From Lophium mytilinum (taxonomy: Eukaryota), in contig MU004184.1 of the NCBI GenBank assembly GCA_010093605.1, positions 312,179-360,966 of the forward strand: a stretch of 48,788 nt of DNA. The letters are read 5' to 3'. Positions 15,001 through 45,637 of this stretch are shown in pieces; positions within the stretch are counted from its first letter, which is position 1; the number at the start of each line of letters is the position of its first letter. A program made the position numbers and the translations under genes. The notes beneath the pieces were generated by a model. The model searched no databases and was not told where the DNA came from. It was given only the letters and a program-made list of their open reading frames with translations.

Positions 15001-15432
15001 CATAGACATTGGAGTAAGAATGCTCTGCGGGCGCATTCAGTCTAAGCATCTTATAAAGACGTTGTACGGAGTGGCGGGTGCTGAGATCATGGAGAAGGAG
15101 GCGTCTTAATGCTGTCACAGGTGCCATTTTCTCCGTCCGGATGTCCTTTCCTGCGAGCTTTCTCATGCGTCAGCCATCTATCTCTTCGTTGAATGTTGTA
15201 GGTCTCAATTTAGGGAATACGTAATAGTGTTAGTTTCGATAGAGCCCTGTGGTGATCCAACAAGACAGAATGTAGTGAAATGCTAAGCGTAAGAATATGA
15301 CGCGTTCACGTGTGACTGCGCTCAGGGAGATTTTGTGGCCGTGACAACTGCAACAAACAACCTGCTGTTTTCGCCGATGCTTGTATTGAATCAAACCGCG
15401 GGGCGCGGGGCGCGGGGTGTGTGCTGCCTGTG

Positions 15433-15500
15433 CTCACGTGCTGGCTCGCCTGATGTGGCTGGTGCGGGCGTTTGTTTTGGTCTATATATTTGCTATAAAT
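15433..15500 (+). promoter_or_regulatory. U6 (copy A) upstream promoter: CTCACGTG E-box and TATA box
   Basis: CACGTG at 15435-15440 (-78) and TATATATT at 15483-15490 (-30); both are positionally conserved upstream of the second U6 copy. Confidence 0.7.
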
Positions 15501-15512
15501 TCAACGCACTTC

Positions 15513-15615
15513 GCCTTCGGGCATTTGGTCAATTTGAAACAACACAGAGAAGATTAGCATGGCCCCTGCACTAAGGATGACACGCTTTATCAAAGAGTAG
15601 CTTCAAAATTTTTTT
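15513..15615 (+). ncRNA. U6: U6 spliceosomal snRNA, intronless copy
   Basis: GCC-UUCG-GGC 5' hairpin, CATTTGGTCAATTTGAAAC (A box), ACAGAGAAGATTAGCATGGCCCCTGCACTAAGGATGACACGC core (ACAGAGA box, AGC triad, ISL), T7 Pol III terminator at 15609-15615. Confidence 0.98.
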
Positions 15616-15639
15616 AGCTTTTGTTTTGCGCTTAGATGA

Positions 15640-15649
15640 GGTTCGAGCC
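15640..15649 (+). promoter_or_regulatory. Downstream (extragenic) Pol III B box of U6 copy A
   Basis: GGTTCGAGCC ~25 nt after the terminator; the same motif is at the same place after copy B. Downstream B boxes are established for budding-yeast SNR6. Confidence 0.8.
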
Positions 15650-18262
15650 CCGCTGTGGTGACATAATATCTTTTTGCCGATTCCTTTATTTTTTAGGAAC
15701 AGAAGTTTCTTCATGCGCTTAATACATCCTATGTAGAGCACAGTGTATGGTAAAGGATGTATCTAATGCAATAGCCCCTGGATATCAGATAGCTATGGTG
15801 CTTGATGCCGCCGGGCTCTGGTTTTGATGACATCCTCGAATCTAGGAACAGCACGGCATCACTTATAGCCAATGTAGTCGTGGAGAGTCTTCAAACAAGG
15901 CGCTTTGCAATGCTCGTACTGTTTAATAAAATTGAGGCTTGTGGTAGGTCGGCCAAGACGTGTTCAACTAATGTGAGAAGATCGCTTCGGGTGCTGCGTG
16001 CTGTGTATGCTTCTTCGGTCTCAGAGCAGAATTCTACAAGAGGGTCGCGATGCAGGACCGACGTAGTTTGTGAGAGCTCCGGTGTCTTCGTAGCGCCAGG
16101 CGGTAGTCATCTAAATCGCGAGGTTAAGGCTTTTTAGGTAACCACCTATCAGTATTTGCGGCGGTCGCAAGGGGAAGGCAGCCTACCACTCATGGCTGCT
16201 GTATACAGATTCAACAGGCTCCCGTCTCAGTGTGATGTGGTCTATCCATGGTCGAAGACGCTCGAAACCCCAAGAAAGGACCTTACGCGTTTCGCTGCTC
16301 CTATTTGTCATCGCTGATGATGACGCTAAGGGCGCTGTGCTACTCAGTGATAGCGACATCATGGTGGACGTAGGATGTGAGGAGTGACTTTCGATGTTCT
16401 TCGCCACTGCAAGCTGTATGTTCGGGATATCGCAGCAAAGAGCCTTGACCACACCAAGTATTCCCCTAAGCCGTGGCGAAAGTTCCTCACCGACAGAGAC
16501 TCATGCAATGTTTCCCTTTGTTAGCAAGCAGATGGTGGCCTCATAATACAAGTATTTCTTCGCGAAAAGTGTGTCTCTGTTCTTTTTATTGTGGCAACCG
16601 TTGCGCAAGTGGCCTCTGAAAGAACCTGAATACGGAATGCACGCTGAAAGAATAGAAGTTTTATTCCAACTACTTAAGAAAGAGTCTATACCCTAATGTA
16701 GCATACATTGAGTCAGTCGTCTGTAACTCCGGCCTCACGGCGCACCGTTGACCCATTCGAACTCTGAAATCGCTGTGTCCCTCGAGATTGTACACACCTT
16801 GGCGGTAGGGGTTGAAAGGGCATTGGGCTTTTCAAGCGAGTAATTGCTATGGCGAGCAATACATCCTGAAGTTTCGAGGCTTTTGGAGAGCTAGGAGTGA
16901 GTCTTGGCTTATTTTGTAACTATCCTATAACTTTCTTCCGTGTACCACGACCTCTCATTCAATGACTTCGAAATTTGTTCGTTTCCCATCGAAATGATTA
17001 CATACGCAGGGAAGCAGCGGCGGCACTCCACAAGCGGAAGAGAAAGGCCTCGAGACGTAGATGGTGGAATACGGCGGTACCCAAACCGAATTGTCCAGAA
17101 GTGTGTCCAAAAATTCAGTTCCTTGATTGAGGTCCACCAAAAACGGAGCGAGAAGGCGGGTTTTGGAGGCTCAAGACTCGCAAAAGGACTACGCTTCTCC
17201 TATTCCGATATCCTATCAACCATCTCAATCTCCCACTTCAACCAATGTACGTTGTCGAGGGGACCCGGAATAGAGGCGACGAGAAGCAAAAGGTATTCCT
17301 AGAGCATCGAGATCAGTTCCTCCATGAACTTTAAACTTTCGAGAGTCAATCCTCCGATGCGTAAGATGTGGGAGCTGGCTTCTTTTACCAGCTCCCATCA
17401 CTGACTCCGGCATTCCAGGGAGTGGCGAAGAGTGTCTTTCCGCCACCGAGTCTAATCCAAAGTACTGCTCTAGATGTAGAAACGCGGTGTTCGGCTTGCT
17501 TCTGTTCAATCCTGGCCCCATGCCGAACCTTCAAGCCACTGATAGACAAGAAAGATCTATTGGGACCGGGTGACACTCGCCATGGGAGCACCTTATGGAG
17601 GGAGAACCGGGTGGGAGGACTCGGGCTATAGAGATGAGAGCTTCTAGAAGGAGAAGTGCTCACCTCGACGAACGCAGGCTTCATCAATTTTGATTTAATA
17701 TGGATGTCCTTGGAGGAAGCCGGTGCTAACGATTCTGGGCAGTAAATTTCAGAACGATCAAGAGCGAGGCTAGGTCAGTTGCCAGCGACCCGGCGCGGAG
17801 GTGAGGGTCGAGAGAAAGCAACTCGGGATGCTATACCGCGGAGCGAAGAGAACACCAGAGCGAAAGGGCTGAAAGGAGGTAGCATGCGAAAAAGAGAGCA
17901 GAGAGCAAGATGTTCGCATTTTTAGAACGCCCACGGAGGCCTGATAATCCCAGACAGCACCCTCTCCGACCCACTAGGGCTAGCGCGTCATTCCGCCAAG
18001 AAGCTTTTACGCCGAGGAGTAGCCGCTCGAGCGAAGCCGCCCACAGAAGTCGGAGCTCGCTCTCCGTCACTTCGTCAACACCACACCTCTGTCACTACCA
18101 CATGATTGTCCTGATTGATTCACTATTCCTACGCTGTCACACCTCCTGTGCCTCAACGCCAGCAATCAAGAGGCGGAGGAGTATCTTGGAAGCGTAGCCA
18201 TATCGCTTTCAGAGCTGTCTACCGTTGAGGCAGTTCTCAACTTGCAAGATCTAGAGGCTACG

Positions 18263-18864
18263 GTGAGTGTTCGTCTTGTACTCCCCCACTCCCCCTTTGC
18301 AATGATGAGAATAAGCCCAATGGCCTAAAGGTAGCCGTGGCAGGTTCTCGTGATGGCAGTCTTCCAGCCTCAAAGTACTTCCCTTCTTTCCACCCCTCTC
18401 ACCGCCTTCCCTTCCCTTGCCCTTCACACTGCGCGACTGGGATGACTGCTGGATCTTGTAACTCTGCTCGGTCGCCGATGCAAGGCCCCCAATAATCTCC
18501 TCGAATCTTCCTAAATCAACAACGTTTGAAAACTTGCTTTACCTCTCACTCATCAAGAAGTACACTTGCCTAATAAAGTGACTGTTGTAGGATAACCGTC
18601 AGGCGTAAGTGCCCGTCTTATACTCCTCTACTCCCCTACTGCAATGACGAGAACGATTATTTGCCTAAGGGCGGTCATGACGAATTCTCGTGATGGCAGT
18701 CTCTCAGTCTCAGACCGGAATTATTGAACGATCCTGTGACCTGCGCGGCTGTCGAAGCCGGATCAACAATAGCTAATCTTCTTTCTGAATCAACAACATT
18801 TCGAAACTTGCTTTACCCTCCACACATCAAAAAACACACTTGGCTAATCAAGCGAGTGGTGCAG
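18263..18864 (+). repeat. Two homologous long spliceosomal introns (18263-18590, 328 nt; 18605-18864, 260 nt) flanking a 14-nt microexon
   Basis: GTGAGT...CCTAAT...TAG and GTAAGT...GCTAAT...CAG. 5' and 3' parts align (e.g. TTCTCGTGATGGCAGTCT and AAACTTGCTTTACC in both). Splicing both keeps a frame open: ...LQDLEAT-DNRQA-TSFNEASHDFW... Confidence 0.7.
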
Positions 18865-19404
18865 GACTAGCTTCAACGAAGCTTCACACGATTTCTGGCC
18901 CGCAAGTGAATACTCTTGCTCGATTTGGCCCCTCGACTCGAGCGATGAGACACGGAGAGCCCTGTGACTGACTCTCGTGGAGGTGGCCCGTCCTGTCTCT
19001 CCGGAGGCTGGGTGCGTCACCCAACCTCATGACCTGCTCGGTCGGCCACTGTCAACAGAAATGTTCTTCTGATACCTCTCTTTCCTCGCTTGGGACTAGC
19101 ATCTCGTTCGTCCTAGTTCTCATAGCTAGGTGTTATCGATCTTGCAGGGACACACATTGCCCGTTGAAGCGCTCGTTTGCCCGAGAATCATCGGTAGGTC
19201 ACACTTTCCCGTCCTATTTCCCTATTCCTTGTTCTTACGACAAATCAAGCCGCACAGTACCCTTGGTCTGAGGTGGGTCGGACTTAGTCTCGTGAAGGCG
19301 GCCCGGTTCTGCCTGACTCGTGGGGTTGCTACGCTGCCCCGATCTTGTGAACTGTTCTTCAAATCTTCTAAAGATAGATACGCTAACGTTTATGGGACTG
19401 CTAG

Positions 19405-19864
19405 GATCCAATATACCGTCTCGACGACGAACAAGAAGGTCTATACCGAGGAGGAGGGGCGTTTCTTGCTCATGCAGAGGGCCCAACATAACACTGAGAG
19501 GGATGGCATCTGTGAAAAGATCCGGGACGATATTCGCGAGTCGCCACTGCTCTGCCTCGACTGGTTCTCCCTCAGCCGTACGCCCCAGGAAACCAGCCGA
19601 TGATGCATGGCCCTCCTCATTACTATGATCAAGGAATGTGAGCCTCGAAGACCAACGGGCGCAGCCCTGGAAAGAGCGAGGTGAATCGTCGGCGGAAGAA
19701 GAACCTGTTGGAGATCATCACAAGAAGCACTACTTCTCCCACTCCCGTCACCAAGGATATGAGCCTGGGCGAAGACCAACGGTAGGGGTGCTGGGAAGGG
19801 CAAGCGCGCAATCGAAGAGGATGAATCGGAGGAGGAAGAGGATGCTCTAGTCAAAAAAGGCTAA
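19405..19864 (+). pseudogene. isw2: C-terminal (SLIDE domain) fragment of an ISWI chromatin-remodelling ATPase
   Basis: IQYTVSTTNKKVYTEEEGRFLL...EKIRDDIRESPLLCLDWFSLSRTPQETSR*CMALLITMIKECE resembles the fungal Isw2 SLIDE motif (YxVSTTNKKVYTEEEDRFLL...IRESPLFRFDWFFLSRTP). Premature TGA at 19601; acidic tail GKRAIEEDESEEEEDA; no ATPase domain upstream. Confidence 0.85.
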
Positions 19865-21128
19865 GCAAGGGGACCCGCTTCTGAAAGGCAAAATCGGGTT
19901 CATTCCATATCGGAACGCTTCCTTCGGCGAGTGCCGTCAAAGAAGAACCTCAATCGACGCAGGCCGGCCTTTGCGCAGAAATAAACCGTCTCGCGGCATC
20001 GTGGGACTAGAAGAAGTATCTAGACGGTAGGGAGACGCCCAGACACCCAGACCCCCAGACACGCATATGGGAATACTGTCGTCAAACGCTTTTGAGAGTA
20101 CTTCAACGATCGAGGTGGATCAAACCAATCAACCCAACACTACAACCTGCTCTGTGACGGCAAGACGCCTGCTCTCATGCCTTGGCTTTCCCCACCGTTG
20201 TAGCTTTCTCCACATCCGCCTTGTCCATCGCCGTCTCCCACATAACCACCAACCAAGCCACATACATCACCACACCCACGCCTCCGATGGCTACCTCTCT
20301 TGAGCGATCTTCGTCAGACTCGATAAGTCTCTGAGCCTCTGGCGCATGCCCGGCGGAAGATGTTCTAAGCAGTCTTCCTGTCCTAGTGTCGTGCGCTTCG
20401 AAACAAACGGTGGTGTTGGCGATAGGGATATGTATAAAGGCAATGATAGGTCGAGTACTGATATGTAAGGGAGGGATTAGTCTCAGGAAGACAAGTGGCC
20501 TCTACTGCATATTCTGTTTCAGCTTAGTGTATCCGCTTGTAGTATAGAGGATGTAGCTCTCATCAATGCACAGGCAGTTTTCTTCTTCATCCACATCAGT
20601 AGACCATGGATTGATGACAACCCATGTCTTTCGTTAGAGGTAGTCGCGCTTAATCTCCCTAAGACTGAGATCAAAGCTATGAGAGCCATGACCTGTCACT
20701 GAGAAGCTGTTCCACAATATCAAGGTGAAAGCGAAGGGAAATGTCTGGCGCGAAAATGCTACTTCGAAGAAAAGGTTGAACGAGCTGAAAGAAACAACCT
20801 CCAAAGGAACAAGGCTAGTCTTGGGAAGGAGATGACTTTGAATGCCTGAACCTTCATGCTACTCTCTAGCCAAATATGCAATGCTACAAAACCTCCGTGT
20901 CTCAAGACTCATATCCCATCCAGTAGTCTCTCTTCACCTATGAACCCAAGCAGCCAGCTCAGTCAATCATGTGGCCATGTGCGAAGATATCCTAGCAGTC
21001 AGCATCGCCAGAACAATGACATCGCTGAATTAATCCACAGTGGGAGCCTCATCAGGCTCACTTAGTTGTGGCTTTAAAAGAGCCAGCTGGCTAGCGGCAG
21101 TCGCGTCCCGCAAACCCTCAACACAACT

Positions 21129-21611
21129 GTGACGCGACCTCAACCTTTCCACCTCTCAAGCCACTCCGCCTACATTACATCTCGCTTCTCCATCAAGCCA
21201 TCCCCAGTACGAGGGTGCCTTGTCCGACCCTCACCATCATTCCGTTCCACCTTCACTATTGCGCGGAACACTCTCTCCCGAATCGACTCCATCATCTTCG
21301 ACGCCGTCACTCCCGTTGCTGGCATATGCAAGCTATATGAGGCTAACATCCCCGAAATGCTCCAGCGCTAGCTGCCGGCCGGAGAAATAAATGTCTTCAT
21401 CCCCTCCGAACTCGCCCTCGAACAGCTCGAGCCTGCCCATGAGCATTACCACCAGCTCACCGCAGACTCCAGGCGCTCAAAATCGTACGATTGCCCAAAT
21501 ATGGTCCCCACCGAGGTCGGATACAAGAAGTTCACGAATCGAAACACACGCATGGAGACAGGTATCTTCAGTGCGAGCAGTCGGGATGCGGGTGCCATAC
21601 ACGCACGCTGA
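21129..21611 (+). pseudogene. Hypothetical gene broken by a RIP-type TAG
   Basis: Frame continues protein-like across TAG 21369-21371 (EMLQR*LPAGEINVFIPSELALEQLEPAHEHYHQL). Confidence 0.3.
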
Positions 21612-22359
21612 CCTCGCCGGGGCTCCCTTCCAGCTCAAGCATATCAAGCTCGATTCCACAGTTGCCACGAATCTTATTCTATGTTGAAAAGAGTTGGGAA
21701 GGTAGCGAGCTACAATGCGCAATACACAACGTCTCCAACTACAGCCAACGTTGGCAGATGTAATAAAAAGCGCTAGATCAATGCTTTACCTCCACGCAGA
21801 AGTAAGGAACCCGTATGGGAAGTCTTCCTGCTGTGGGTTGGGGGCGGTACCACCCAGATTAGTCAGAGGGACAAGTTCCATCTCCCTGTGATCTGAGGCG
21901 TGTGACACATTTTTCTTTGACCACTACTTGATTCTGAGGTATCGAATTGAGGTCTCGCACATGAGGACTTTCTCGAAGCTTGTCACAACCTTTAGATTTT
22001 GAAATTAGCCGATGTCAAAGCCATTGGAGCCCGAGTTAGCCCCTTGTCTAGTCAACTCATCAGCTGTATATAAAGTAGCAACCCCTCCATTTTCAATCCC
22101 TGTAAGGAAACTTTGCGCATATTCTAAGGGATTTGAAGCCCATCACAATTTACAGATACTGTGCATCAATTCCACCCAGCATCCAAGCCGTTGTCACGCA
22201 GGCATAAAGACTGTCCTCAATCCAAGCCCTAAGAACGCTAGGTGCCTCCCATTGAAGTCCCTCGATGCACTATCGAAACCCCAATGGGAGATGGAGCCCC
22301 GCGCATTGGCACCGTCTAATCATACTTCAGTGTACCCTGGACTCTGCATCAATCATAAC

Positions 22360-22881
22360 CTATCTCCAAAACACTGCCGCAACTCCAGCGAGAACCGTAC
22401 CCAAAATCACGGCCAGGTATTCATAGCGCATCCCCCGATCCATTCCCACCACGCGCGCCTCTCCGTTCCACCAGGTGGGCAGAAGACCTTGCTGTTTGTC
22501 CTTTCCCGCCTCCCAAGCCTTCAGTATCTCATTCACCGCCACCATCAGCTCATCGTCCTCTTGTGGCATGCCGCGGGACATCGGCTGCAGGAACTGGATA
22601 GAGGCCGCATCGCCGGTGTCATTGAGCATCGTAAGCGTGCAGTACGGGCAGGTGCTGTGGCCCAGATCCATCCAGCGTTGTAGGCAAAAGAGGCCCAGGT
22701 CGTGGCCACATTGGGGCCGCACGAGGATGTCGAGATCGAGGTCGAGATGGTCGGCATTGTAGGCGTTCTTAGCGAGCTCGGCGGCGAGGAGGATGCGGTC
22801 GGTCGGGTGGAGGGCGAATGGGTTCTTGCAGATGGGGCAGCTAGACGTAGCGTCTACTGTTGTGAATAGGTGTTCGGACAT
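22360..22881 (-). CDS. RING-finger protein (173 aa) with C-terminal transmembrane anchor; putative E3 ubiquitin ligase
   Basis: CPIC...CGHDLGLFCLQRW...TCPYC RING pattern; hydrophobic tail YEYLAVILGTVLAGVAAVFWR*; intact single-exon ORF. Confidence 0.8.
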   Translation of the reverse strand: MSEHLFTTVDATSSCPICKNPFALHPTDRILLAAELAKNAYNADHLDLDLDILVRPQCGHDLGLFCLQRWMDLGHSTCPYCTLTMLNDTGDAASIQFLQPMSRGMPQEDDELMVAVNEILKAWEAGKDKQQGLLPTWWNGEARVVGMDRGMRYEYLAVILGTVLAGVAAVFWR

Positions 22882-23225
22882 TTTGGTGGTGGTTGAATTA
22901 GGACGGGCGGGATTGGGATGGGTGACGAGGAGGAGTTGGTCCGGTGATGATTTTATGAGGGCGAGTGGTCTTTGAGTAGCAAAGGGGTGCGAGACAGCTT
23001 ACACTTTCACTCAAGGACAAGCCAGTTTCACTACGCCGTGGCCCCAAGGGCGTACACAATGTTGCCGCATTGTGAATGGGAACAGTCAGGAGGCAGGCGC
23101 TTTGCAGGGGGCTAGCTGATACCTCAATAATATCTGTACGAATCACAGTATACGAGTACAGGGTTAGTTTTGGAAACATAGACAATGCAATTGTCTTCGT
23201 CCGTGGTCGTTTTGGTCGGAAAACG

Positions 23226-23556
23226 CTAATTCGCTTCAAGTTTGCGCACGGCTTCGACGCTTTCTATCTTTGCTAGCATCTCGCACAGCCCTCCGCTGCT
23301 GAGAGCATCGTGCATGACTTTGACGCTATCTTCTCCTCTGGCGTCGCGCTTCCCTGCATTGTGATGAAGCTTTAATTCGCTCTTAGGTTGCGCACAGCTT
23401 CCACGCTATCGTGTATGCTAGCGTCGGGCATAATCCTCCCCGCTGATTGCGTGGCGAACGGTTTTGACGCTATCGTTTATGCTAGCGTCGGACACAATCC
23501 TCCTGTCTATTTGGGTCGCCCATGGCCTCGACGCTTTCCCTCTCTGCTAGCGTCGT
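23226..23556. repeat. Degenerate tandem array of five ~64-80 bp units, each with a GACGCT...AGCGTC inverted core
   Basis: Cores at 23256, 23322, 23402, 23466 and 23530 (spacing 66, 80, 64, 64). A higher-order ~146 bp period is visible (TAATTCGCT...TTGCGCAC at ~23227 and ~23373). Confidence 0.75.
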
Positions 23557-24777
23557 ATTTCTGCATGCTGGCACTTGTGTTCATTGTCAACATTGTTGCC
23601 TTGAACGCCCGACTTTGGTGAACATGCGGATCTGCATTCTATCTTTTCATGCCACCGCTTTCCCTGTATCCTACACCTCGTTTCTGCTTTGCGTTCTACC
23701 TGCATTCCTCTTGCATCTCATGCCCTACGTCACCGTGGGCATGTTGCGTGACTAACTGCATCTTTATCTCCCGCTCAAGGGGTGATGTTGCATTCGACTG
23801 ATGAATGGAATTGTATTTGATCATTCGTGACGTAGAGAATACCGTGGTTCATTGGCAGAGCTGACGGTAGTGGAAGAACGCAAGGCCTAGAGATTATTCT
23901 GAGGTGCTTCACGATCCATGCGACCTTATCGTCCCACAAGCAGAACTAGGAAACAATTTCAAGTGGCGGCGAAGGCTTTGACAAACACTGGATCGAGGAT
24001 AAATTGTAAGCGACTAAGACATGGCTTTAAATGAGCTCAATATGGATGTCTTGACAAGCCGGGCCACACCGTCAGAGTTCCCTAACTATTTGGTCTCTTT
24101 GTACATCCCGTACCATCACCCCTAGCGTATCCGTGGCAATCAAAACCTCCGTACCTATAGAATGTGTCGCATGTATAGCCAAGAAGCCGCTGGTGCAAGA
24201 TGAATGTTCAAAATTAAGAACGCCGAGCTCAAGAAAGAAGAGTAGCCTCCTGCGAAGCGTCCAGACTCCCGGCAGATAAGCGTGAGGCTAAGTCCTCGCT
24301 ATGACTACAGTGATGTATCGAAACATAGTAGAAAGTGTGGCAGTACATCTTACCTTTCATTGCCATAGTGAAGAGCGTAGATATCACTGTAGCACGCAAG
24401 TAAGATGACCGGTAGCACTCGTGTGAGGGTATTCTGGGGCTGAAAGTTCGAACAACATTTCTAGAGTTCCGTACTAGCAATTGGGTGCAAGTATAGGCCT
24501 ACCAGCTTGGCGAAAGGGGTGCACATGCAGGGAGACAGGAAGCTTCCCGGACTAGTCACGTGCGAAGTGGGAAGACAGCGCTGGCCGCGTCACTTCACCC
24601 TTCCCTTCCTGTTCCACGACTTTCCGCCAGATTCCACGCCGCCGCCTGTGCCCCTCACCTGCAACCCTCAAGTAAACTGCTCCGTTAAACGGTCTAGCGC
24701 TGATGAGTAAGCGCCAAGACTCTCAAATATTCTGCAGTATATCAACCCGCCCGCCCCCCGACCTTCCTTCCTTTCTC

Positions 24778-25024
24778 AGCTCTCTTGTAAGTTTCCTCCC
24801 CTCTCCCCTCCTTCCAATGTCCATCATCGCTAACAATCTTTGCAGTGCCTTTTGGCTTAGATCAAGTGTAGTATCGGTTCTTCTCAGTTTAATCGCTGGG
24901 ACAGCCCCTACGGGGGTTCCTTCTGATTATCCCATTTTTGGAAACTGTTCCTGGGCCGCTGGGCTTGCCTATGTCCGGGGACACAGTGTCGCTCGTATTG
25001 CACTGCCTCGGGCCGACGCGAACA
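24778..25024 (+). ncRNA. U2: U2 spliceosomal snRNA interrupted by a 59-nt spliceosomal intron (24787-24845); ends approximate
   Basis: Spliced 5' end AGCTCTCTT|TGCCTTTTGGCTTAGATCAAGTGTAGTATC; branch-recognition GTAGTA 24868-24873; stem IIa TCTCAG-TTTAATCG-CTGGGA; stem IIb AGCCCC-TACG-GGGGTT; Sm site ATTTTTG 24934-24940; stem III; loop IV ATTGCAC. Intron GTAAGT...GCTAAC(24829)...CAG. Confidence 0.96.
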
Positions 25025-26199
25025 TTCTTTGTTCAACATCTTTTTCATTGATCTGCTCAGCTTGTCTGGGTCGTCGAAGAAGAAGCATTCGTCCTTTGGT
25101 TCGCCTTTGGCTATGAAGTTCGGAATAATTGCTGGTGTTTGGTGAGCTAGTCAGCGTTTGTTGTTGTTGCTTCCCCTCGCTGGTGCTCCCCGCCATCTCT
25201 TGTTGCTGATCCTGATCGCGACAGACCTTTCTCTGAGCTGCTTCAACATGCTGTGATGCTTCATCGTCATTGCCGTGAGTGCCTTAAGTATTGTGGTACT
25301 GCTGAATGGCGTCCGCACCGATCAAGCTCGCCGCCTCTTCTTCAGCGTCAACAACGTTGACGCGTCTCAACGCGATACGTCACAGCTCACGCGCCGCAGC
25401 TCCGTATTCCGCCTCACCAGAGTTCGAGTCCCTGGTAAGGCACTCAGCCATTCAGCACCATGCAACGGTAATGCGGTCACTCCCCATGACTTTGGCCACG
25501 ACAAGGCTAACACTAGACTTTACCCTCGTAGACCCAAAGCTCTAACATCCTGCGCCGCCGGAAGCTAGAGCTGGAAGTTGAAAACCTCTCCGGACGTTGT
25601 CAGTCCACCAACGACCCAGCACGACGGGAAGCAGTGCGACCGCCTTGGGGCCTTCCCCAGTCGATATGTTGAAGCCCTCCTTTTAAACACTCTGATCAAT
25701 CTCGAGGCCACCGATACTCTTCTCTGCATCCGTATCATCTTTGCCCTCATTCATCCACCCAAGGTGCCGCTGAAGACCTTGCGAAATGCCCTCCTACCGG
25801 GCTTCTCCGCTCCGATGCCAGGTTCGGAGCCGAACCTGTCCAATCGGAGGTCAAAATTCTAGACCCCATCCTCCTACCCTAGAAATTCGAGCATCGTACC
25901 TATCGCCTGGCCTTCTTTCCCGACAGCGACTCCACCTTGAACGCGCGACCGCGCAGATGGCGCGTAGGACCGCCAAAAGAAGAAAAATCTGCGCCCTCCA
26001 AGAGCGAAGAGGCCCACACCATATAGAATGTGTTTGAGGTGGAGCAGCACCTCACCTGTTAGATGAAGGAAGCTCCAGGTTAGTAGCTAATTTTCATTTT
26101 CTCATCCTTTTGCCTCCCGATCGCTCCCACGACCATTCGGTTGCGCGCTTTGGGCTATATCTAACATGGGTATTCGGTGAACGCAGCGATATGAACGTC

Positions 26200-26785
26200 G
26201 AGGAGAGTGAGATGCGGAGTGGCATCTACTGACATGAATAGCTCACTCGACACCCACGGTACCAAAGGCGTAGCCCTCGCCCCCCCTCCTCTAGCGCGCC
26301 CTCTTCCAGCACGACCGGTCGTCCATTTCCCATTCAAACAAGCCTCGAAGCAGTCGCTCATGCTCATCCCATGATTCCACCACGATCCTCCGAGGCGAGC
26401 GAGCCACACATCTAGATCACTCGAACCCAGTCCATCCAAGTGGCGAGAAAGAAACCATCGCGTTAATGGGAGCGATGACTTCACCAAGGAGTCGAGAAGC
26501 CCACCGACGCCGTCATGCCGATCTACCTTTCCTCGGGACATTGAGGATCAGGCTGAAACATATATGAATATCGGACTTGTGAGGCGCCGCCTCGATCTGA
26601 AGACACAGTGGCCGGCTGACTTTGACAGGCGAGGGGGTACTTCCAAAAGGACACGCTGGAGGAATCATACAATAAGTGTGGTGGATAAAAATCGTCCATG
26701 GGTCCCCGATGTTGCGCGAAGAGCCCTGGGAATCTTCATATTTTGGCCACGGCAACACCGCTTGAGGGTAAACTTTCTGTATTGA
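26200..26785 (+). pseudogene. Hypothetical gene remnant
   Basis: Long Ser/Pro/Arg-rich frame with a single internal TGA (~26372) running into ORF 26564-26785; no recognisable domain. Confidence 0.2.
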
Positions 26786-29279
26786 GATGATGGGATCCGC
26801 AGCAGAGCTCTCAATAACGAAAGACGTGTCTACAGATCCCCTACATCTACCTGCCTCGGATGCCGACGGGTAAGCAGTAAGATGGTGGCTTACGGTGTAA
26901 GCCAGGATTCAAGACGATAGGCCAGGCAATCCGGATGCAGCAGTCTACTATAGGAGGTCAAAGAAGCAGATAAGCACACAATTTCCTTAAGCGCGAACTT
27001 AATTGGATGCAACCACATAATTAATTTCTCTTTCTATCCTGCCCGAAGATCGAAAACTCTTTTGATGCTCATAACTGAATAGCCCAGCCAGTGACAAAAC
27101 TACCCGACACGAACGATGACAGCTCAAATCTATTGGGTGCTTACCGTCCGCAGACCCATCTATCTTGATCAGAACCTCTCTCCGAGACGCAAGACCTCGG
27201 CCGCTGTAGCAGGGCCATGAAGATAGGCTCGCCCTATTCCCCCAAAGAACGATATTTCCAGGATGGAGCCTCATCAGAGGAAACTGCTAGCGAATCAAAG
27301 GCACCGGTATAAGGATTCTATGCAGAACTCCCTGTAGGAGTCAGCAGTAGACTTGGGCATGCCCCGATCGGCAGTCCAGTCAAATTCTTTGTGCCTCATG
27401 GCTTTTAAATCGAGGACTAGTCATGTTCTTTTTATTACAGCGTCCACTCAAAGATATTATCCGATCCCTGGTGCGCGTCGCCCGACGGAGGCCCTCCGGC
27501 GCCGACGAGCCTCCGAGATGGATCAATTGAGTACATATCTCTCATCGGCCGGCAGCAAGCACTCCGAGGCGAGTGAGGCGAACGCACAGGATGGGAGACG
27601 GATACATTTTCTCATCGCTTTACCAATCTAGCACGCTTGATGTGAAGAAAGACTATCGGTATGCCCAATGTGAAAGATAGACTTTGCCCATCGGGGATGC
27701 AACTTGCCAGATGTCTTGCACTAGACCCATCAGCAGTCCTTTCCTCGATGTCTTCGTTGCATTCTCACAGCGGTCCCTGGCTATACCATCCTACCAAGCG
27801 ATAAAATGGATGCTGGTATAGATTGGGTTCAACAAGGCTTCAGTCCGGCTGTCCTGATGAGGCTCTCTGAATACAATTCATGATCTGATGATCACAAAAG
27901 AGCGATACGCTCTTCTTTACTTTCATTTCAGTGGGTTCAGGTGAAGTCCACTGACATCTTATAGGCTAGCCACGGTCTCACTACTGTTCGGTTCGAGCCA
28001 GTAAGCTTGCATTCCTGAAGCCATTCCCAGAACTGATGTCGTCTGCCAGGATACCCTCGCTCTGGGTAGTGGTCGCGGCCTCTGTCGTTGCAAACTTTAA
28101 GCACACCGCTTTCTTGGTCACGGAGACCTGCCTTCCCATCTGCGCCATGTCCGGGATGTAGAAAGCTCGCACTCCCAACCTGTCCCCGAAATTAATGTTG
28201 TCAGCTCACTGCCGTGGCATGACTGCGGCCACTGATTTTGCGGTCCTACAGCAAATCGAGTCTCAGTGCTTGGAAACAGTCGACGCCGTCGAGCGCTGGG
28301 CGAGGCGAAGAGCTTGCTAGATCGCATGGGAGTGATAGGTTTTCCAAGCCGAGACAGCCATTTCCCATGCCATGCGCGAGAGGAATAACAACGATTGACG
28401 AAGGTGGACGAACACGATGAATACGGCGATATACTAGACGGACCATTAGAGCAGTCATCTTCAGAATCTGATGAGTTAGGCAATTGAGATCGCATTGACA
28501 TTAAATGTGAGATCTGGATCATGGATGTTTCGGGATATCTCTAGCTCTGAATACCTCGTTTTCCAACCTTATGTATTTGATCGGCATCATGATTTAGCAG
28601 TGACCATGTCTGGAATGACCCGTTACAACATCCTTCTTTCGCGTTTCCTATTAGGCCCAAGTATGATCTCCCCTGAGTCTCGCCATTCCCTGTCGACATT
28701 CTCACTTTTTCTCTAGATAGTACTGACGGCGCTGCCGTTAGCGCGGGCGAAAACGGCGGTAAAGATGTATTGTATAGACGGAACCCTAATAGAGAGCGGA
28801 AGGTTCTCGCGCATACGCGGGTGAGTGGAAGACAGCATCGCGTGTGATGCGGTTGGCATGTTCAAGGATTTCGTAGGGAGAGCCGAAAGGTCGTTGCTGG
28901 GCAGCGAAGCGTAGATAGCTTTCGCGAGAGGAATCTTTCCAATTATTAGACCGTCAGTGGAATACAAGTATAGCGTGTGGCCGGAAATGTGACTGTGTGA
29001 AAAATGAGGGGGACGACCTGTTCAAGGGAGGGCGTCGAAGTAAAGGAAACAGACTCGCGCAGTCATTCAGGGTTTGTCGTGTAGGGTGTGGGAGGGAATC
29101 TTGGAGGTGAACGTGCTGTGCCAGGAGACTGTTGTCTGAAAACCGCTCTCTCTGCTTGCCGTAGCGTTGTTGCCGACGGCGATAAGCTCATACACATTAA
29201 TTGTAGACAACTATTACTACTAGGACATCGTTCCGTACCTTGTTGCCGAAGCTCCGGCGGCGCACGGGACTGTTGTGGT

Positions 29280-29334
29280 CTCACGTGGCACATATACCGT
29301 GCACTGACCATGTCCACGTCTGGGTGTATATATT
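29280..29334 (+). promoter_or_regulatory. U6 (copy B) upstream promoter: CTCACGTG E-box and TATA box
   Basis: CACGTG 29282-29287 (-75); TATATATT 29327-29334 (-30). Confidence 0.7.
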
Positions 29335-29356
29335 TGGTTTAAATTCAACACACTTC

Positions 29357-29509
29357 GCCTTCGGGCATTTGGTCAATTTGAAACAACACAGAGAAGGTAT
29401 GTATCACCCCCCCTAACACTCAGCTTCAAAACTAATATCTTTCAGATTAGCATGGCCCCTGCACTAAGGATGACACGCTTTATCAAAGAGTAGCTTCAAA
29501 AAATTTTTT
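29357..29509 (+). ncRNA. U6: U6 spliceosomal snRNA interrupted by a 49-nt spliceosomal intron (29397-29445)
   Basis: Exons identical to copy A except the 3' A-run (6 vs 4). Intron GTATGT...ACTAAT(29431)...CAG inserted at ACAGAGAAG|ATTAGC. T6 terminator 29504-29509. Confidence 0.98.
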
Positions 29510-29530
29510 GTGTTTTGTTTGGTCAGATGA

Positions 29531-29540
29531 GGTTCGACCC
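29531..29540 (+). promoter_or_regulatory. Downstream Pol III B box of U6 copy B
   Basis: GGTTCGACCC preceded by AGATGA, as in copy A. Confidence 0.8.
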
Positions 29541-37835: not shown

Positions 37836-40739
37836 GGTTATAAGCCTAGGTACTTTATACCTTTAACCTCTATCTTTACTATATTTAATAGTTATACTAA
37901 TAACTCTCTTATAATATTTACCTAATATAATACTAAAGAGAAGCTAAAAGCTAAAAATTCTACTAAGTATACCTTTTTTTCTATATTCTCCTCTATATAA
38001 AATTTCTAGATAATTTTACTACTATTATATAGAATATAATTTTATATAATAAGCTTAAAAGAGGCTATATATTATTTTATCTATTTCTACTACTTTTTAT
38101 CTTTTTATCTTCTTCTATACTAAAAATACTATCTAATTTATATATTTAACTACTAAATATAAGTATAGCCTAAAAGAGAGCTTTAAGTATAATATAGAAT
38201 ATATATATTATAACTAAATAGAATTACTACTATACTGCTAGCATACTTCTAAATAGTAAGAATAAAACTAAGAAGAAGAAGTTAAAGAATATATATAACT
38301 TAGCTAGTATATATTAAAATAGTAAGGACTTATATAGTAAGAGCTAAAAGAGTAAATAAAGCTCTAAAAAATCTACTTTAGTTATACTAGTTGCACTAGT
38401 TAATAATAATAACTTAGATAATAATAATAACTTAGATAATTTAGATAAAGTAGATAAATATAACTCTAATATATCTATACCGCCGTCTATAGATAATAAA
38501 GATAACTTATTATACCTGCCTAGTAATACTAATATAGACCCTTAGCTATATACTAAGAAAATAACTAGTAAGTATTAGAAATAGAAAGTATTTAAGCTAA
38601 GCCCGCTATAGTAACTAAGTCTATGCTAGATAAATCTACCCTAGGTAGATCTACTCTAGTAGAGTCTACTATTATTTCCGCGCTGTTAGAATACTCTAAT
38701 TAATAAAAACTATAATAGTAGTAACCTAGTTCTATAGGCCTAGGTATAAATTATAGAGAGGAATATTAATATACTACTATAAGAATATACTTAATACTAT
38801 TAATAATAAAATAAGTACTTTTATTTATATCTAAATAGCCCCCTCTACTCTTACCTATAATAATACTTACTAATAATATTAAATAACTTTAACTTAGTCT
38901 TACTAGAGAAGAAATAGAACGCTACTATAAAGCTTTTTAAAGATTAACTAAAACTAAAAGGCCTAAATAACTTTACTAACTAGAATCTCTACTTATAGCT
39001 TTATATAGAAATATATAAGTTTACTACTATTCTTAATAGTACTAAGCCTTAACTAACTACTAGAAATATTACTATTAATATATAGAAGTCTAAAAACTAC
39101 CTTATTTAAATACTAATTCTTAACTATATTAAATAGAAACCGCTCTAACTAATCTATAGAGTAAAGACAGCGTTTAAAATACTATAACGCCTATTACGCT
39201 ACTATACTATTAGAAACGCAACTAAGATAAATAACCTATAGAAAAAGTATCTAGCTATTACCTATAATACTTTAAAATCTATAGATAACTTCTACTAATA
39301 ACTTAAGGTTACTAATACTTAACTTACTACTCTTAACTCTACCTATAAAATGCCTAAATAGTTCTAGAACTTATACTTTCTTAATAGCCTATCTAATGCC
39401 TTTATATTATAGAGAGATAACTTCTTTAGTAATAATAAAGATATTACTAAAGTTAGTTTTAAAATAGATTTTAATAATATTAGAAGTAAAGTAATTACCT
39501 AGAAAGTATAAATATAAGGTAGTAATATATATATTAACTTTATCTAAAATAGTAAGTAAGATAGAAAATTAAAGATAATAGATTAACTTAAGATATAACT
39601 AAAGAAAAAGAATACTTAGTTCTAGAAGTATATTAATACTATTAAACTCTACCTAACTTATAATATAAGTAAAGGGGGGTATAGAAGAGAAAAATATATT
39701 ACTCTAGCCTACTAACTCTATAGATAGAGTATATAATATAGAGGCTTATAAGGTCTAGCTATCCGCGGCTAAGCTAGCTTATAATTAGAAGAATAAGGCT
39801 ATAGATAAAAAGAAAATAGCTTTAAGCGCTAGTAACTAAATAATATAGAAAGTATAAACTTTATAACTATTTTTAAAACTCTACTTCTATTATATAGCTC
39901 TAATATATTATTATATATTATATAAACTATACTAATATCTTTATAGAAATAGAATATAAATAATAAAATATACTCTATACCTAATATAACTATATTAATC
40001 TCTATTCTATAAGATACTATAGTTACTACGCCTTTTCTCCCCTCTAATAATAATATAACCTAGGTATAGTATATTAATAATATACTAGAACTAGTCTTCT
40101 TTATAAAACTAACTATACTATATAGCTAATTCTAATAGTTTATAGACTTAGGCGCCTTAAAATACTATATAGGTAATATTAAATTATTTAAGAGTCTATA
40201 ACTTCTACTATATTCTATAATAGTAATAGGTATAGAAGGAAGATATATTTATAGATATAGTAGAATAGTTAATCTATAAGTAGATATTTATAGAGTAAAG
40301 AAGACTCTAATACTTATAAACATGCTATATATTTTAGGTATTAATTTTAGCCTTATTTCTATTAACTAACTCTATAGTTTAGGCGTCTACTCTCTTATTA
40401 AGAAAGGTATCTTTAAAATTAGATAGAATAATACTAATAAAATTATTATAGTTACTAAAAGCCTAGAACTAAATAACTTATATATACTATATACTATTAA
40501 TTCTATAGAGTCTATCTAGGCTATATAGGTTTTCTATATAGCTATTAAAGAAAATACCGCCTCTATAGATCTATAGCACTATTAGATAGAATATATAAGT
40601 TTAGTGTAGATACTATAACTATAGAAAGTTATAAAAGGTATTAACTTAAAGTCTAAAGGCCTTAAATACTATAAAATCTATTCTTTTACTAAAATATAAT
40701 AATAGAACTTTACTACTAAAGCTACCTATATATTAGTAC
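37705..40739 (+). mobile_element. RIP-degraded Ty1/copia LTR retrotransposon, truncated at the start of integrase
   Basis: Degraded zinc knuckle near 39650; protease VDLGALKYYIG (from DSGAS.H) at 40145; LINMLYILGINFSLISIN*L (from NVLYVPG...LISVSQL) near 40320; DL*HY*IEY (from LWHRRMGH) at 40568 plus a degraded CxxC, i.e. gag-PR-pre-integrase order. Confidence 0.8.
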
Positions 40740-43700
40740 TATTAGGAATTTCTAAATTAAGAAACGCGTAGAGAATACTAGTTACTTATATAACCTTCTA
40801 GAAGACTATATATTTTACTACTCTATAGGCTTTACACTACTCTATAAAAGTTTATCTACTTCTTATATAAAATTTACGCGTAGGCTATATAGATAATTCT
40901 TAATTATAGATAATCTAGTATTATAGGTAATTATTATAGTTAATAACTACTTTATAGTCCTTATAAATATAGCTATCTACCTTCTCTATCTAACCTTTTA
41001 AAACCGCCTAATCCGCCTAGGTTATAGATAGATAGATAATAATATAGATAGAGCCTTATATACTAAATATATAATTATTATATATAGTAGAAAATTTAAA
41101 GTTATACTAGTATATCTAGTTATCCCTTCTTACTACCTCTACTAGAGCTTTATAGTCTATAGTAACTTTATATATATTATAGACTTTATATATTATATAA
41201 ATAGTAATATTTATATATATTTCTAAGAATTATATAACTATTACTAACCTTAATAATTTTAATATTCTAGTAGACTATTAAAGCTAGTAACGCGTGCGCT
41301 AGATATCTAGGCTAGGGAATAGCATATAATATATATATTACGCGTTAGATAGTAGACTATATAGTAATTTAGAATGCATCTAATTATAGTATATATATTA
41401 TAAAATAGAAAGATAATACTAAGTATAAAATAGAGCCTACTTATACTCTATTTACTAATTCTATACTACTATTTCTTATTTCTAATACTCTTAAGTAACT
41501 TAATAACTAGCTATAGGCTTTCTTCTCTAGAATTCTATACCTTAATATAGGTAGCTATAAACTTTTAATATTAGTCTTTATTAAATATAATTATAGTATT
41601 ATTTTTATACTAGCTATATTTATCTTTCTTTATATAGAACCGCTGCCTAAATTATATAAATAAGAGATTAAAAGGGCACCACTTCTAGCAGTTCTTTATC
41701 TTAATACTCTTCTTAGCCTTCCTATAAATTAGAGCTAAGTAGTATAAGTTATTATTAGTAAGGGGCTTTATATTATTAATCTTATTATTTTATAGTTAAT
41801 ATAATTAGTATATTATACTTTAGCTCTCTACCTTATATAATTACTTATACTATCTATAATATCTAATAAAGTATCTCTAAGAGGGGGGCTAGATAGAATT
41901 AAATATAGTAAGAATAAGTACCTAGAGTTAAATAGTTATACTTTACTCTTAATGCGCTTTATTAGTATATATATCTTCTTGCGTTAGTTAATAAAGTTCT
42001 ACTACTAATTCTACTCCTTTACTTCTATTCTTGCTACCCTTGCGGTAAAGGCCTATTATTATTCTAGTATTATATCTTTAGTTAAATCTAATATATTATA
42101 GCGGTTAGGATTATTATATATATTTTTATTATTATCTTCTTTATAGTTTATATACTAACCTACCCGTTTTATAATAAATTCTTACTAGTAGAATAATAGA
42201 TAGTACTTATAGCGTAAGCTAAGTGCCCGCTATTAGGCGAGATATTTATTATAATTTACTACCCTAGCTTATAGTTAGTATAGTCTTATTTAAGGGGGGC
42301 GGTAGTTAATACTAGTAGTAGTAACCCTGTAAATTAGGTTTATACACTTCTAGCCTAAGGTATATTTACTAATAGTATAGTAGAGGTAAGTATATATATA
42401 TATAATAGTATTACCTAAAAAGAGATTAAAAAACTCTTTTAAGTATCTTTATATTTTTAAGGCGTTTATAGACTATTCTATAAAGAGTAGATTTATAACT
42501 ACTACTTAAATAGCCTTAGCTATAAAAATTACTAGTAGCCCCTATAATCTATTAGAATGCTATCTAATACTAGGTTAGTAACTAACTTTAGCTTAGTTTT
42601 TATCTACTCTAAAGAGATAGTTCTAATTCTTTATTAGTGTTAATATAATACTAGTAATATCTAGAGTTATAAAACTAAGACTATAGTATTCTTATATAAT
42701 ATTATAAGTAACCTTTATTATAGTATTATAGAAATAACTAAAAGTATTATAAATCTAGATTATATATTATAATTAGCTATTATATAAGGTTATAGAAGTA
42801 GAAAGAGAGTAATATATCTTCCGCGCGTAAAAAAGGTCTAGAGTAGTAGAAATATTAGCTTAAGTATAGAATAGTTAGTCTTTATAAATATCTATCTATA
42901 TTTATATTAGTACTTACTAAAATATATCTAGCCTAATACTCTTAGTCTAGGCTATAAGGTTATTACTATATTTCCTAATTATATTAGTGCCTAATACTAT
43001 GCTTTTAAGTATCTAATATCTTATTTATTCTTCTACTACTATATATTTTACCTCTATAGTTAGTACTTTAGTATGCCTATCTACGCTATTTTATATCTAA
43101 ATTATTTTACTATATTATTTTATACTAAGAGAGCTAATATAGTTATAGATAGATATACCTCTATCTATACCTAAGAAGCGGCTAGTAGAAGAGAAGAATA
43201 GTAGACCGCTTAATATAAAGGTATTAGACCTAGTTATTTAGTTAATAGCTCTGCGGGCTTCTATTCTAGCCGCTATCTTATCTTAAACTACGGCGGCACC
43301 CTAATAGGTATTTATTAGTATGCACTACTTAGTAGAGTAGCTATAATATATATATAAGCTAATTTTATACTTAAAGTCTATTTATATATAGAAGTTAGTA
43401 TTACTAGATTAAAAAATAGGTATATACCTATTCTTATCCTCTATACTATATTTTCTCTTTCTAGTAAAAAATAAGGTATAGCTAGATAGCTAAGATAATA
43501 TAGTATTACTATTTTAGAATATTCTAGTAGTATATTCTCTTTTACTTATTAAGTTCTATATATTTATTATTAGTTAGTAGGCGTTAGAGTTAAGAGAGCT
43601 AGATGCGTTACTATATTAATTAGCTTTAAGGCAGCGCATTTTTACTTCTTTACTATTTATAGTTATACGTGTTAGCTATATATATATTAATATATACTAT

Positions 43701-45637
43701 AGATAGAATATATAGTATAGTATATTTAAGTTATATAGTAAGTCCCTATTTAGAGTAGAAAGAGATAGTTTTATATTACCTTTTACTATATTTAAGTAGG
43801 TAATATTAAGCCTTACTAAATAATAGATAGGGGGCGTATAGTAAAAGAATATTCTATTTCTTAAGGTAGAGTATAAGAATAATAACTATAAAGAGAAGTA
43901 AAGTAGATTATAATTAAGTAGTATAGAGAGAAGAAAATAAAAAGAGAGTAAGTTGCGCGTTTATTATAATAGAATATAATAGAGCTAGCTAAATATAATC
44001 TATATATATTAACTTAGCGTCTTTAGCTAGTTATATACCTCTTCTCTATTCCCCCCTTAATAAAGCCCTATTATTCTATATAATTAAATACTTCTATCTA
44101 TATAATTACTTCTTCTATTATATTACCTTAGACTAGAGCTTATACTTACGCACTTATATTAACTTCTACTAATTACTATATATGCGCTACTACCTTCTAC
44201 TATTATTTCTAGATAGCATCTTCTATACTATTAAAATAGTAGTTAGTTAAGAGATTATAGACTTTATATTCTATATTATTAGATAGATAGCTAGCTAAGT
44301 TAAAGGCCCTAATAGAGGTATTAATATTATAATACGCAGCTATTCCCTTATTACTAACTTTATTTCTAGTTAGATAATCTACTTAGGCGTAAATAACCCG
44401 CTAGCTATTTTCTCTAGCTATAGTATATATCCCTCTTCTATATTATCTATAATAAACGCCTCTATCTTTACTAACTAAATTATATAACCTTAAGCTATTA
44501 TATTTTTCTCTCTCTTAGTTTAAAATACCCTCTTTACTACTATTTAGGCCTTCTTTCTATAATTCTAGCCCTTTATTAGTTACTATACTATAAGTAGTTA
44601 TATACTATATTATAGAGTACTCCTCTATAGTAGAGAGGTCTCTAGATAAAAGAATAAAAGGGCAGTTTACTAGTAGTAAATTCCCCCCCTATAGAATCTA
44701 TATATCTAGTTAAGATATTTAGCTATATAGCTATACTTTTAGTTTTAATAATAGCTATAGTTTAGATAACTCTATACCGCCTATATATAGAGATATTAAG
44801 CTATTTATATTCTAGTCTAGTAAAATAGTATAAGGTTATAATAAGGCCCTACCTTAGGGTAGTATAGTTCTAGTCTAGTTCTCTTAGTAAGGCGGGCTAT
44901 AGAATAGTCTAATTATAAATTAGGTTAGCTAGATATATAAACTCTTATACTATTTAAGTTCTCTACCTTTTATAGTTCTATACTCTTATTTCTTATATAA
45001 CTTTTATATTCTTTTTAACTTTTTCTATAGCTCTAATCTCTTACTTATTTATTTTATTACGTAGGTATTTATAACTAGTAGAGGCTAATATAGGTATAGA
45101 TAGAAGGATAGTATAGTACTAGCTAGAGTAGATAGGTATAGGGGTATTATCTATCTATATTAGCTATATTAATTAAAATTATTATATATATCTAATATAC
45201 TATTTAGCTAAGGCTTAATAATTAGAGTAATATAGTCTAGTTTTTTTAATAAACTCTAATATACTATTACTATATACTAGTCTACCTTATTCTTAACTAG
45301 AAACTTAAGATTATCTATAATATAGTAATATATAGTTTTATATTCTATATTAAAACTAAATATTATATTTAATCTAGTAATAAGTATACTAAATTTAGAG
45401 GCTAGTATTACTAGTATACTCTTTAGTAGTATAGGTAGTATAAGTTTATATACTAGTATAATATAGGCGGCCTTACTACCTAGCTACTTTACTAATATTA
45501 ACTTTATTTCTATATGCGCTAAACTATAGTAGTATTTAAAGTATAGTAAAGTTCTATTTTATTTAGTAGGCGGAGTATCTATAGAATTAGAATAATAAAA
45601 TGCATTAATATAATCTTATCTTTTCTTATTATAGTTA
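40740..45637. mobile_element. Nested RIP-degraded insertion(s) of unresolved class
   Basis: The copia frame stops abruptly at TATTAGGAA (RIP form of a TGTTGG LTR-like start); no copia integrase or RT motifs were recognised downstream. Confidence 0.45.

Follow-up and report, generated by a model that had tools for sequence, protein, structure and literature searches.

A U6–U2–U6 gene cluster with spliceosomal-type introns in Lophium mytilinum

Intron-bearing snRNA genes in fungi and the Lophium locus

Introns within the genes of spliceosomal small nuclear RNAs (snRNAs) served, via the reverse-splicing hypothesis, as early evidence that U6 and U2 stand at the catalytic centre. An mRNA-type intron in the U6 gene of Schizosaccharomyces pombe was reportedly described by Tani and Ohshima in 1989. 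Here, a stretch of 48,788 nucleotides from the genome of Lophium mytilinum (contig MU004184.1, positions 312,179 to 360,966 of the forward strand; referred to as the window) was analyzed, which holds an intronless U6 gene (U6a), a U2 gene and a second U6 gene (U6b), the latter two each interrupted by a spliceosomal-type intron.

U6 introns are found in many fungi, with up to four per gene, a concentration near the ACAGA box and the internal stem-loop, and lineage-specific insertions (survey of 2016 by Canzler, Stadler and Hertel, as summarised in PMC5855946 and PMC7827515). The sole U6 gene of S. pombe carries an intron (PMC5855946), intron-bearing and intronless U6 paralogs can coexist (PMC5855946, PMC7827515), and intron-bearing fungal U6 genes were stated still to need experimental validation (PMC5855946). 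Introns in U2, U1 and U5 were cited for one yeast, the U2 case being Rhodotorula hasegawae (Takahashi et al. 1993, via PMC5855946). For Trichoderma reesei, a construct termed 'U6 promoter with 1st intron' has been employed (PMC9518982), and a single U6 homologue was given for a Nodulisporium species (PMC5569088). Two neighboring intergenic regions of Aspergillus fumigatus hold U1-2 and a U6 (PMC2377427). The window resembles this member of the Pezizomycotina in that different spliceosomal snRNA genes lie within a few kb, but the partners differ, being U1 and U6 in A. fumigatus and U6, U2 and U6 in the window; introns are not discussed in the excerpt of PMC2377427.

The whole window was scanned with Rfam covariance models at the curated gathering thresholds (44 bits for RF00026, 46 bits for RF00004). 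Exactly three matches were obtained, two to U6 and one to U2, all on the + strand and spanning about 14 kb:

15513..15612, + strand: U6a, intronless U6 snRNA gene (RF00026, 86.5 bits, model positions 1-105 covered)
24836-25027, + strand: match of the U2 gene (RF00004, 123.3 bits, model positions 1-192)
29357-29505, + strand: U6b, U6 gene interrupted by a 49-column insert (RF00026, 55.0 bits unspliced)

A laxer Rfam scan of positions 1-38500 (E up to 0.5) yielded no further RNA genes, and the window contained no tRNA genes. An original prediction, made from the letters of this DNA, had proposed three co-oriented + strand snRNA genes within about 14 kb, two of them with spliceosomal-type introns, and this was borne out by Rfam and by reading of the sequence. 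The three are genuine snRNA genes of a filamentous ascomycete and, judged from their signals, all are probably active. In the reading favored here, to which a probability of roughly 0.68 is given, the introns reflect a habit of fungal lineages and the linkage of these three genuine, probably active genes is a local, lineage-specific arrangement.

An intron-bearing snRNA gene is a known fungal habit, and the cluster as such leaves existing knowledge unchanged. It sets an intronless and an intron-bearing U6 gene with identical products side by side. The unusual part is the U2 intron, which follows an exon 1 of about 9 bases, so that the 5' end of this U2 would exist only once that exon has been spliced. 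It is the U2 gene that exceeds routine, since its intron belongs to a recurrent 5'-end class that would imply very short first exons, and since it carries an odd letter at an invariant position. The question thereby raised is how short a capped first exon can be and still be used by the spliceosome. In practice, the locus may help to annotate fungal snRNA genes correctly, along with the U6 promoters that drive guide-RNA expression.

The U2 gene and its counterparts in other fungi

The following features of the U2 gene were delimited:

24737..24745, + strand: TATA-like GTATATCAA, preceding the A of AGCUC by 40 nt (sequence; spacing as in other U2 genes)
24778..24786, + strand: exon 1, AGCUCUCUU, with 9 nt for the presumed transcription start at the A (sequence, comparison)
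24787..24845, + strand: spliceosomal-type intron, 59 nt, GTAAGT ... GCTAAC, 12 nt, CAG (sequence, comparison)
24846..25027, + strand: exon 2, with upper stem I, the GUAGUA branch-point recognition sequence (read at 24868-24873) and stems IIa-IV (RF00004)
24934..24941, + strand: Sm site, AUUUUUGG (sequence, Rfam alignment)

The intron lies between AGCUCUCUU and UGCCUUUUGG, where the exon 2 side also reads UGCCUUUUGGCUUAGAUC and the junction is AGCUCUCUU / UGCC. It interrupts the RNA between nt 9 and 10, and both the helix II region and stem I, on its 5' strand, are split by it. In the Rfam alignment, mispair marks were confined to stem I, which the intron interrupts, and to a single pair in the last stem; those in stem I arose because the first ten or so positions of RF00004 were misaligned into the 3' end of the intron. 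Stem IIa, by comparison, stayed paired despite changed letters and bore no mispair marks.

Joining of the exons restored AGCUCUCUUUGCC, a sequence with which 38 intronless U2 genes among the matches listed begin uninterrupted, and also the two-part lower stem I, with -7.7 kcal/mol as against -4.4 kcal/mol for the unspliced neighbour sequence. Together with the U6 stretch AAAGAGUAGCU (15592-15602), the spliced 5' end formed helix II with 11 bp, one bulge and -12.7 kcal/mol, whereas 500 shuffles gave -4.4 ± 2.1 kcal/mol and only 2 of them reached the observed value. The position of this U6 3' stretch and its complementarity to spliced U2 had been predicted, as had the complementarity of U2/U6 helix I, and both predictions held. 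Since such complementarity is the universal design of U2 and U6, it gives no sign of a special pairing between these copies.

Both introns of the window have GT..AG borders, a fungal 5' splice site hexamer (GTAAGT in U2, GTATGT in U6b) and CTAAC, and in each the distance from branch motif to 3' splice site falls within 10-30 nt. The inserts in U2 and U6b are spliceosomal-type introns, and by these signals they would be spliced. For U2, transcription by RNA polymerase II from the TATA-type promoter is predicted; the transcript would then shed the 59-nt intron after its exon 1 of about 9 nt, by which stem I and the U6-pairing 5' end would arise.

Like U2 of R. hasegawae, the U2 gene of the window thus contains a spliceosomal intron. 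The R. hasegawae intron reportedly lies just 3' of the branch-point recognition sequence, unlike the window intron at nt 9/10 with its exon 1 of only about 9 nt. A GT..AG intron directly after GUAGUAUCU(G), i.e., at such a site, is also carried by two metagenome U2 genes, one in L078 (- strand, about 1412) and one in L102 (+ strand, about 301). This site is a second hot spot of U2 introns, distinct from the 5'-end class.

The 5'-end class itself was surveyed in a metagenome collection, which was scanned with a 29-nt U2 core and gave at least 125 matches at at least 116 loci. After duplicates had been collapsed, 115 U2 genes remained among the matches listed, and their 5' ends were grouped as follows:

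45 listed genes: 5' end ACCACUCUG, no intron, taken as basidiomycete-like
38 listed genes: contiguous AGCUCUCUUUGCC
16 listed genes: AGCUCUCUUUGCC 13-mer split by an insert with GT..AG borders, 51-66 nt long
14 listed genes: other 5' variants, among them L060, which ends like an intron and whose first exon was not found
2 listed genes: too short to classify

The 16 intron-bearing genes among these 115 were located on 14 contigs and made up 16/54 of the listed AGCUCUCUUUGCC-type genes. Their introns occupied six positions, all within the 7-nt stretch of the 5' end that also holds the window intron. With the A taken as its first nucleotide, exon 1 measured 5 nt in one listed gene, 6 nt in four, 7 nt in three, 9 nt in one (L030, at the site used in the window), 10 nt in one and 11 nt in six. 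All 17 introns, i.e., that of the window and the 16 listed, started with GTNNGT and showed CTRAY at a distance of 10-24 nt from the 3' AG. The three tandem copies of U2 on contig L063 all contained an intron, and they were less alike in the intron (identity 0.58-0.74) than in exon 2 (0.85-0.94). This is the pattern of real introns, in which selection acts on the signals only.

The length of exon 1 depends on the start site. The base before AGCUC was a pyrimidine in 55/55 genes, and a TATA-like motif was found 37-59 nt upstream in 32/38 of the listed intronless U2 genes and, by a simple pattern search, 38-45 nt upstream in 7/17 of the intron-bearing ones. This shared promoter geometry argues for the same start site in both groups, and exon 1 would therefore comprise about 9 nt in the window and 5-11 nt elsewhere.

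In a tree of 62 ascomycete-type U2 sequences, which was built from a short alignment and has many weak branches, the intron-bearing genes were scattered and at least 12 state changes were needed. Only the class with an 11-nt exon formed mostly a single clade (5/6). The U2 genes of L004, L028 and L060 were nearly identical (clade with 99% support in the Shimodaira–Hasegawa-like approximate likelihood ratio test, very short branches) and nevertheless differed in intron position, which was 7 in L004 and 5 in L028, while in L060 the first exon was not found. This pattern points to introns that slid, or were gained repeatedly, among closely related paralogs or species.

A search of the literature revealed no description of a 5'-terminal U2 intron; supplements and key surveys were outside its scope, and an earlier report is possible. 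It may be proposed, tentatively and with more doubt than confidence, that 5'-end introns of U2 form a widespread, apparently undescribed ascomycete class with capped first exons of 5-11 nt, that they arose through repeated insertion or sliding at a hot spot, by reverse splicing or under selection for a promoter-proximal intron, and that the window U2 is a functionally distinct variant with altered stability of the branchpoint stem-loop. If so, first exons of 5-11 nt in U2 would be among the shortest that any spliceosome must handle, the scattered U2 introns would parallel the U6 story, and a promoter-proximal U2 intron would tie the supply of U2 to splicing capacity.

Tandem or inverted arrays of U2 were frequent in the environmental fungal contigs, e.g., on L063 (3 copies in 2.7 kb), L016 (3 copies) and L022 (2 copies). 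L033 and L057 each harbored an inverted U2 pair in which one arm was a truncated copy of about 100 nt.

The U6 pair, the variant base of U2 and competing explanations

The exons of U6b are letter-identical to U6a, and the two copies share elements outside the transcript:

29357..29396, + strand: U6b exon 1, 5' stem-loop through ACAGAGAAG, identical to U6a
29397..29445, + strand: U6b intron, 49 nt, GTATGT ... CTAAC ... ACTAAT ... CAG (49-column Rfam insert; exactly missing from U6a)
29446..29509, + strand: U6b exon 2, AUUAGC to the 3' end, closing with 6 T at 29504-29509 (Rfam, sequence, comparison with U6a)
15483..15500, + strand: TATA-like block TATATATTTGCTATAAAT, -30 to -13 of U6a, conserved with U6b (sequence; within repeat D3)
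29327..29344, + strand: TATA-like block TATATATTTGGTTTAAAT upstream of U6b, conserved with U6a (sequence; within repeat D3)
15609..15615, + strand: run of 7 T, terminator-like end of U6a of the RNA polymerase III type (sequence)
15640..15650, + strand: GGTTCGAGCCC, B-box-like, 25 nt past the T run of U6a (sequence)
29531..29540, + strand: GGTTCGACCC, B-box-like, downstream of U6b (sequence, copy comparison)

ACAGAGAAGAUUAGCAUGGCCCCUGC and GGAUGACACGC match the U6 consensus letters in both copies and become contiguous in U6b only without the 49-nt insert. Outside the gene, similarity between U6a and U6b was confined to three blocks, namely the region of the TATA element, the TCACGTG motif (-79 in U6a, -76 in U6b) and, past the T run, GATGAGGTTCGA.CC. 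The last of these, about 25 nt after the T-run terminator in both copies, is taken by us to resemble the B box of polymerase III genes. In the window, this element lies downstream of the terminator and not within the intron, whereas the B box of S. pombe U6 is reportedly intronic. The arrangement of a TATA element at about -30, a T run and GGTTCGA..CC after the terminator makes both copies similar, as judged from sequence, to the U6 promoter of the Saccharomyces cerevisiae SNR6 type (upstream TATA, T run, downstream B box); in the window, the last block follows some 25 nt past the T run.

Like the known mRNA-type U6 introns of fungi such as S. pombe, which the spliceosome removes, the U6b intron has canonical GT..AG borders and a branch site and lies in the most conserved part of U6, past the ACAGAGA box and before the AGC triad. 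The junction in U6b (AGAGAAG / AUUAGC) is found 3 nt upstream of the triad, unlike that of the S. pombe intron, which directly adjoins it (PMC5855946).

Signals of polymerase III-type genes (upstream TATA, T-run terminator) are present in both U6 copies, and transcription by this polymerase is predicted for both from the TATA element at about -30, TCACGTG, the T run and the downstream B-box-like element. The same mature U6 would be obtained from U6a and U6b once U6b had shed its intron. Since U6a keeps elements that lie outside the transcript, both upstream and past the terminator, it is not a processed retro-copy. A segmental duplication as the origin of the similarity was also ruled out, as only the gene and the short promoter and terminator blocks are repeated. 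The missing intron of U6a represents a precise gain or loss.

In the U2 gene, a single base stands out:

24876, + strand: G where the others have U (GUAGUAUC-G-GUUCUU; T in 111/111 listed metagenome U2 genes)

The aligned rows likewise had U at this position in 90/90 cases. The base is the only deviation of the window U2 in 56 columns conserved to at least 95%, 29 of which were fixed by the search pattern itself, and at least one deviation was seen in 16/91 rows of the same alignment. As a consequence of this one letter, the invariant UCUGUUCUU stretch 3' of GUAGUA reads UCGGUUCUU in the window. By our own alignment, the position corresponds to U41 in human numbering; presumably it pairs with A29 in the branchpoint-interacting stem-loop, and we take U41 to be pseudouridylated in human and yeast. 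A29 is listed among the stem positions of this stem-loop, and in a human orthogonal system losses of single stem pairs lowered the U2 level and reporter splicing only mildly (PMC13019295). The G at 24876 may be tolerated, may betray a copy that is minor or in decay, or may stem from an error of the assembly. The proposal of a variant U2/U6 pair distinct from the main genes fared differently on its two sides: it fails for U6, where the exons are letter-identical and both copies have the same promoter and terminator modules, and stays weakly open for U2, which has this one substitution in an otherwise canonical RNA.

The distance between U6a and U2 is 9.2 kb. By reasoning from a fungal genome of tens of Mb, a few genes placed uniformly would come nowhere near the clustering of these three, and a local origin is therefore likely. 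In the favored reading, U6 was duplicated locally long ago, and U2 lies between the two copies; a joint function is not demonstrated. Among 46 other listed U2 loci (26 ascomycete-type and 20 other, 383 kb of flank in total), none had a U6 or other non-U2 Rfam RNA beside U2 within flanks of up to 6 kb; 18 of the 26 ascomycete-type loci reached at least 4.5 kb downstream, the flanks were shorter than the U6a-U2 distance, and a U6 gene with several introns could score below the gathering cutoff. Conservation of the linkage was thus not seen in these loci, which include no close relative. The listed loci are distant from the window (best U2 identity 77-82%), and blastn of positions 16000-29300 against the 116 loci listed gave 132 alignments, all of them inside the U2 gene and none in the flanks.

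A shared upstream motif was found at all three genes:

15306..15312, + strand: TCACGTG, E-box-like, about 207 nt upstream of U6a (motif count; a role in the promoter is presumed)
15434..15440, + strand: TCACGTG, 79 nt upstream of U6a, in the place equivalent to that of U6b (motif count, copy comparison)
24556..24562, + strand: TCACGTG, about 220 nt upstream of U2 (motif count)
29281..29287, + strand: TCACGTG, 76 nt upstream of U6b (motif count, copy comparison)

TCACGTG occurred 10 times in the window compared to 2.2 expected, a number reached in 0/100 shuffles, and 4 of the 10 lie upstream of snRNA genes. CACGTG was present within 300 nt upstream of 15/59 listed ascomycete-type U2 genes and in 5.1% of background 300-nt windows, i.e., an enrichment of about five-fold. 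Because it also precedes unlinked U2 genes, it looks like a general feature of snRNA promoters more than a mark of the cluster. In these fungi, TCACGTG/CACGTG may be an upstream element common to the polymerase II and polymerase III promoters of snRNA genes.

Several observations weigh against the favored reading of three active genes in a local arrangement. First, the G at 24876 departs from all 111 other listed U2 genes. Second, the genes lie in a gene-poor region with at least one relic, an isolated fragment of a SLIDE domain, and 8.5 kb from a block with the signature of repeat-induced point mutation (RIP), which is where decaying copies accumulate. Third, a lack of joint function is an assumption, given a spacing far tighter than uniform placement. 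Fourth, the TCACGTG common to all three genes could reflect co-regulation.

The first two observations would fit secondary or decaying copies: U2, and perhaps the whole cluster, would be a variant of minor importance or on its way to becoming a pseudogene, and the spliceosome would draw its U2 and U6 from canonical genes elsewhere. This is unlikely, though it has the best standing among the alternatives. The deviation is a single one in the conserved columns, and 16 of the 91 rows deviate too. Stem IIa has been kept by compensating letters, and the Sm site, GUAGUA, the promoter spacing and the intron signals are intact. Both U6 genes are letter-perfect with full flanking elements, positions 1-36 kb are free of the RIP signature, and the mild effect of single stem-pair losses in the human system also speaks against this reading.

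The last two observations bear on the module put forward in the original prediction, in which U2 and one U6 depend on splicing and the intronless U6 does not; taken further, this would be a selected and co-regulated unit with feedback on the supply of U2 and part of U6 and a splicing-independent baseline from the intronless U6. The common strand and the span of 14 kb agree with such a unit, as does the excess of TCACGTG, and it has been speculated that splicing may regulate U6 levels where intron-bearing and intronless U6 paralogs coexist (PMC5855946). Its probability is nevertheless low, well below that of decaying copies, as the 46 listed U2 loci showed no such neighbors within flanks of up to 6 kb, the similarity of the U6 flanks is limited to promoter and terminator blocks, and CACGTG is found at unlinked U2 genes as well. 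The term 'self-referential' applies trivially, as it would to any intron-bearing snRNA gene, whereas a special module found no support. Finally, it is hardly credible that the inserts are unspliced and inactivated U2 and the second U6, because each carries a full set of splicing signals (5' splice site, branch site, 3' splice site) spaced as in fungi, inserts of the same kind with diverged sequence and kept signals occur in 16 other listed U2 genes, on L063 in all three copies, and the exon 1 fragment and the promoter spacing have been kept.

Surroundings of the cluster

Three features of the surroundings were delimited:

19373..19600, + strand: fragment of a SLIDE domain (ISWI C-terminal) between U6a and U2 (PF09111, E 5.2e-16)
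32456-33820, - strand: amino-acid permease (Pfam)
38000..48788, no strand: AT-rich block with RIP signature (GC content 0.14-0.27)

From about 38 kb onward, the GC content was about 0.23, and the RIP indices at 40-48 kb were 1.64-1.66 for TpA/ApT and 0.06-0.10 for (CpA+TpG)/(ApC+GpT), while no RIP signature was obtained over 1-36 kb. The position of the cluster beside a RIP block was thus confirmed by GC content and RIP indices. Pfam matches were found in 3/134 open reading frames (ORFs) of at least 85 aa, namely the permease, the isolated SLIDE domain and a weak RING match. Most of the Atlas clusters nearest to the permease are ascomycete. The ORF region that bears the SLIDE domain extends over 19130-19600 (+ strand), and other ISWI domains were absent from the 41 + strand ORFs of at least 40 aa in 16000-21500. 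The fragment is probably the relic of an ISWI-type remodeller gene. It is the one clear relic behind the earlier description of the region as pseudogene-rich, which is thereby thinly supported, the 38 kb of normal GC content being otherwise gene-poor.

In positions 1-38000, which have normal GC content and are not affected by RIP, the permease was the one clearly intact gene recognisable by Pfam; this is unusually sparse for a filamentous ascomycete. Just upstream of the SLIDE fragment, at 18323-18875, two diverged direct-repeat pairs with 76-77% identity and spacings of 340 and 274 nt were observed, which suggests a duplicated unit of about 300 nt. An inverted repeat of 31 nt is located at 6433-6463 / 6681-6711, with arms that are 97% complementary and 217 nt apart. 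Within the RIP block, positions 45550-46052 have a GC content of 0.14 and are open in all six frames over 125-159 codons, as would be expected of low-complexity sequence poor in stops more than of a gene.

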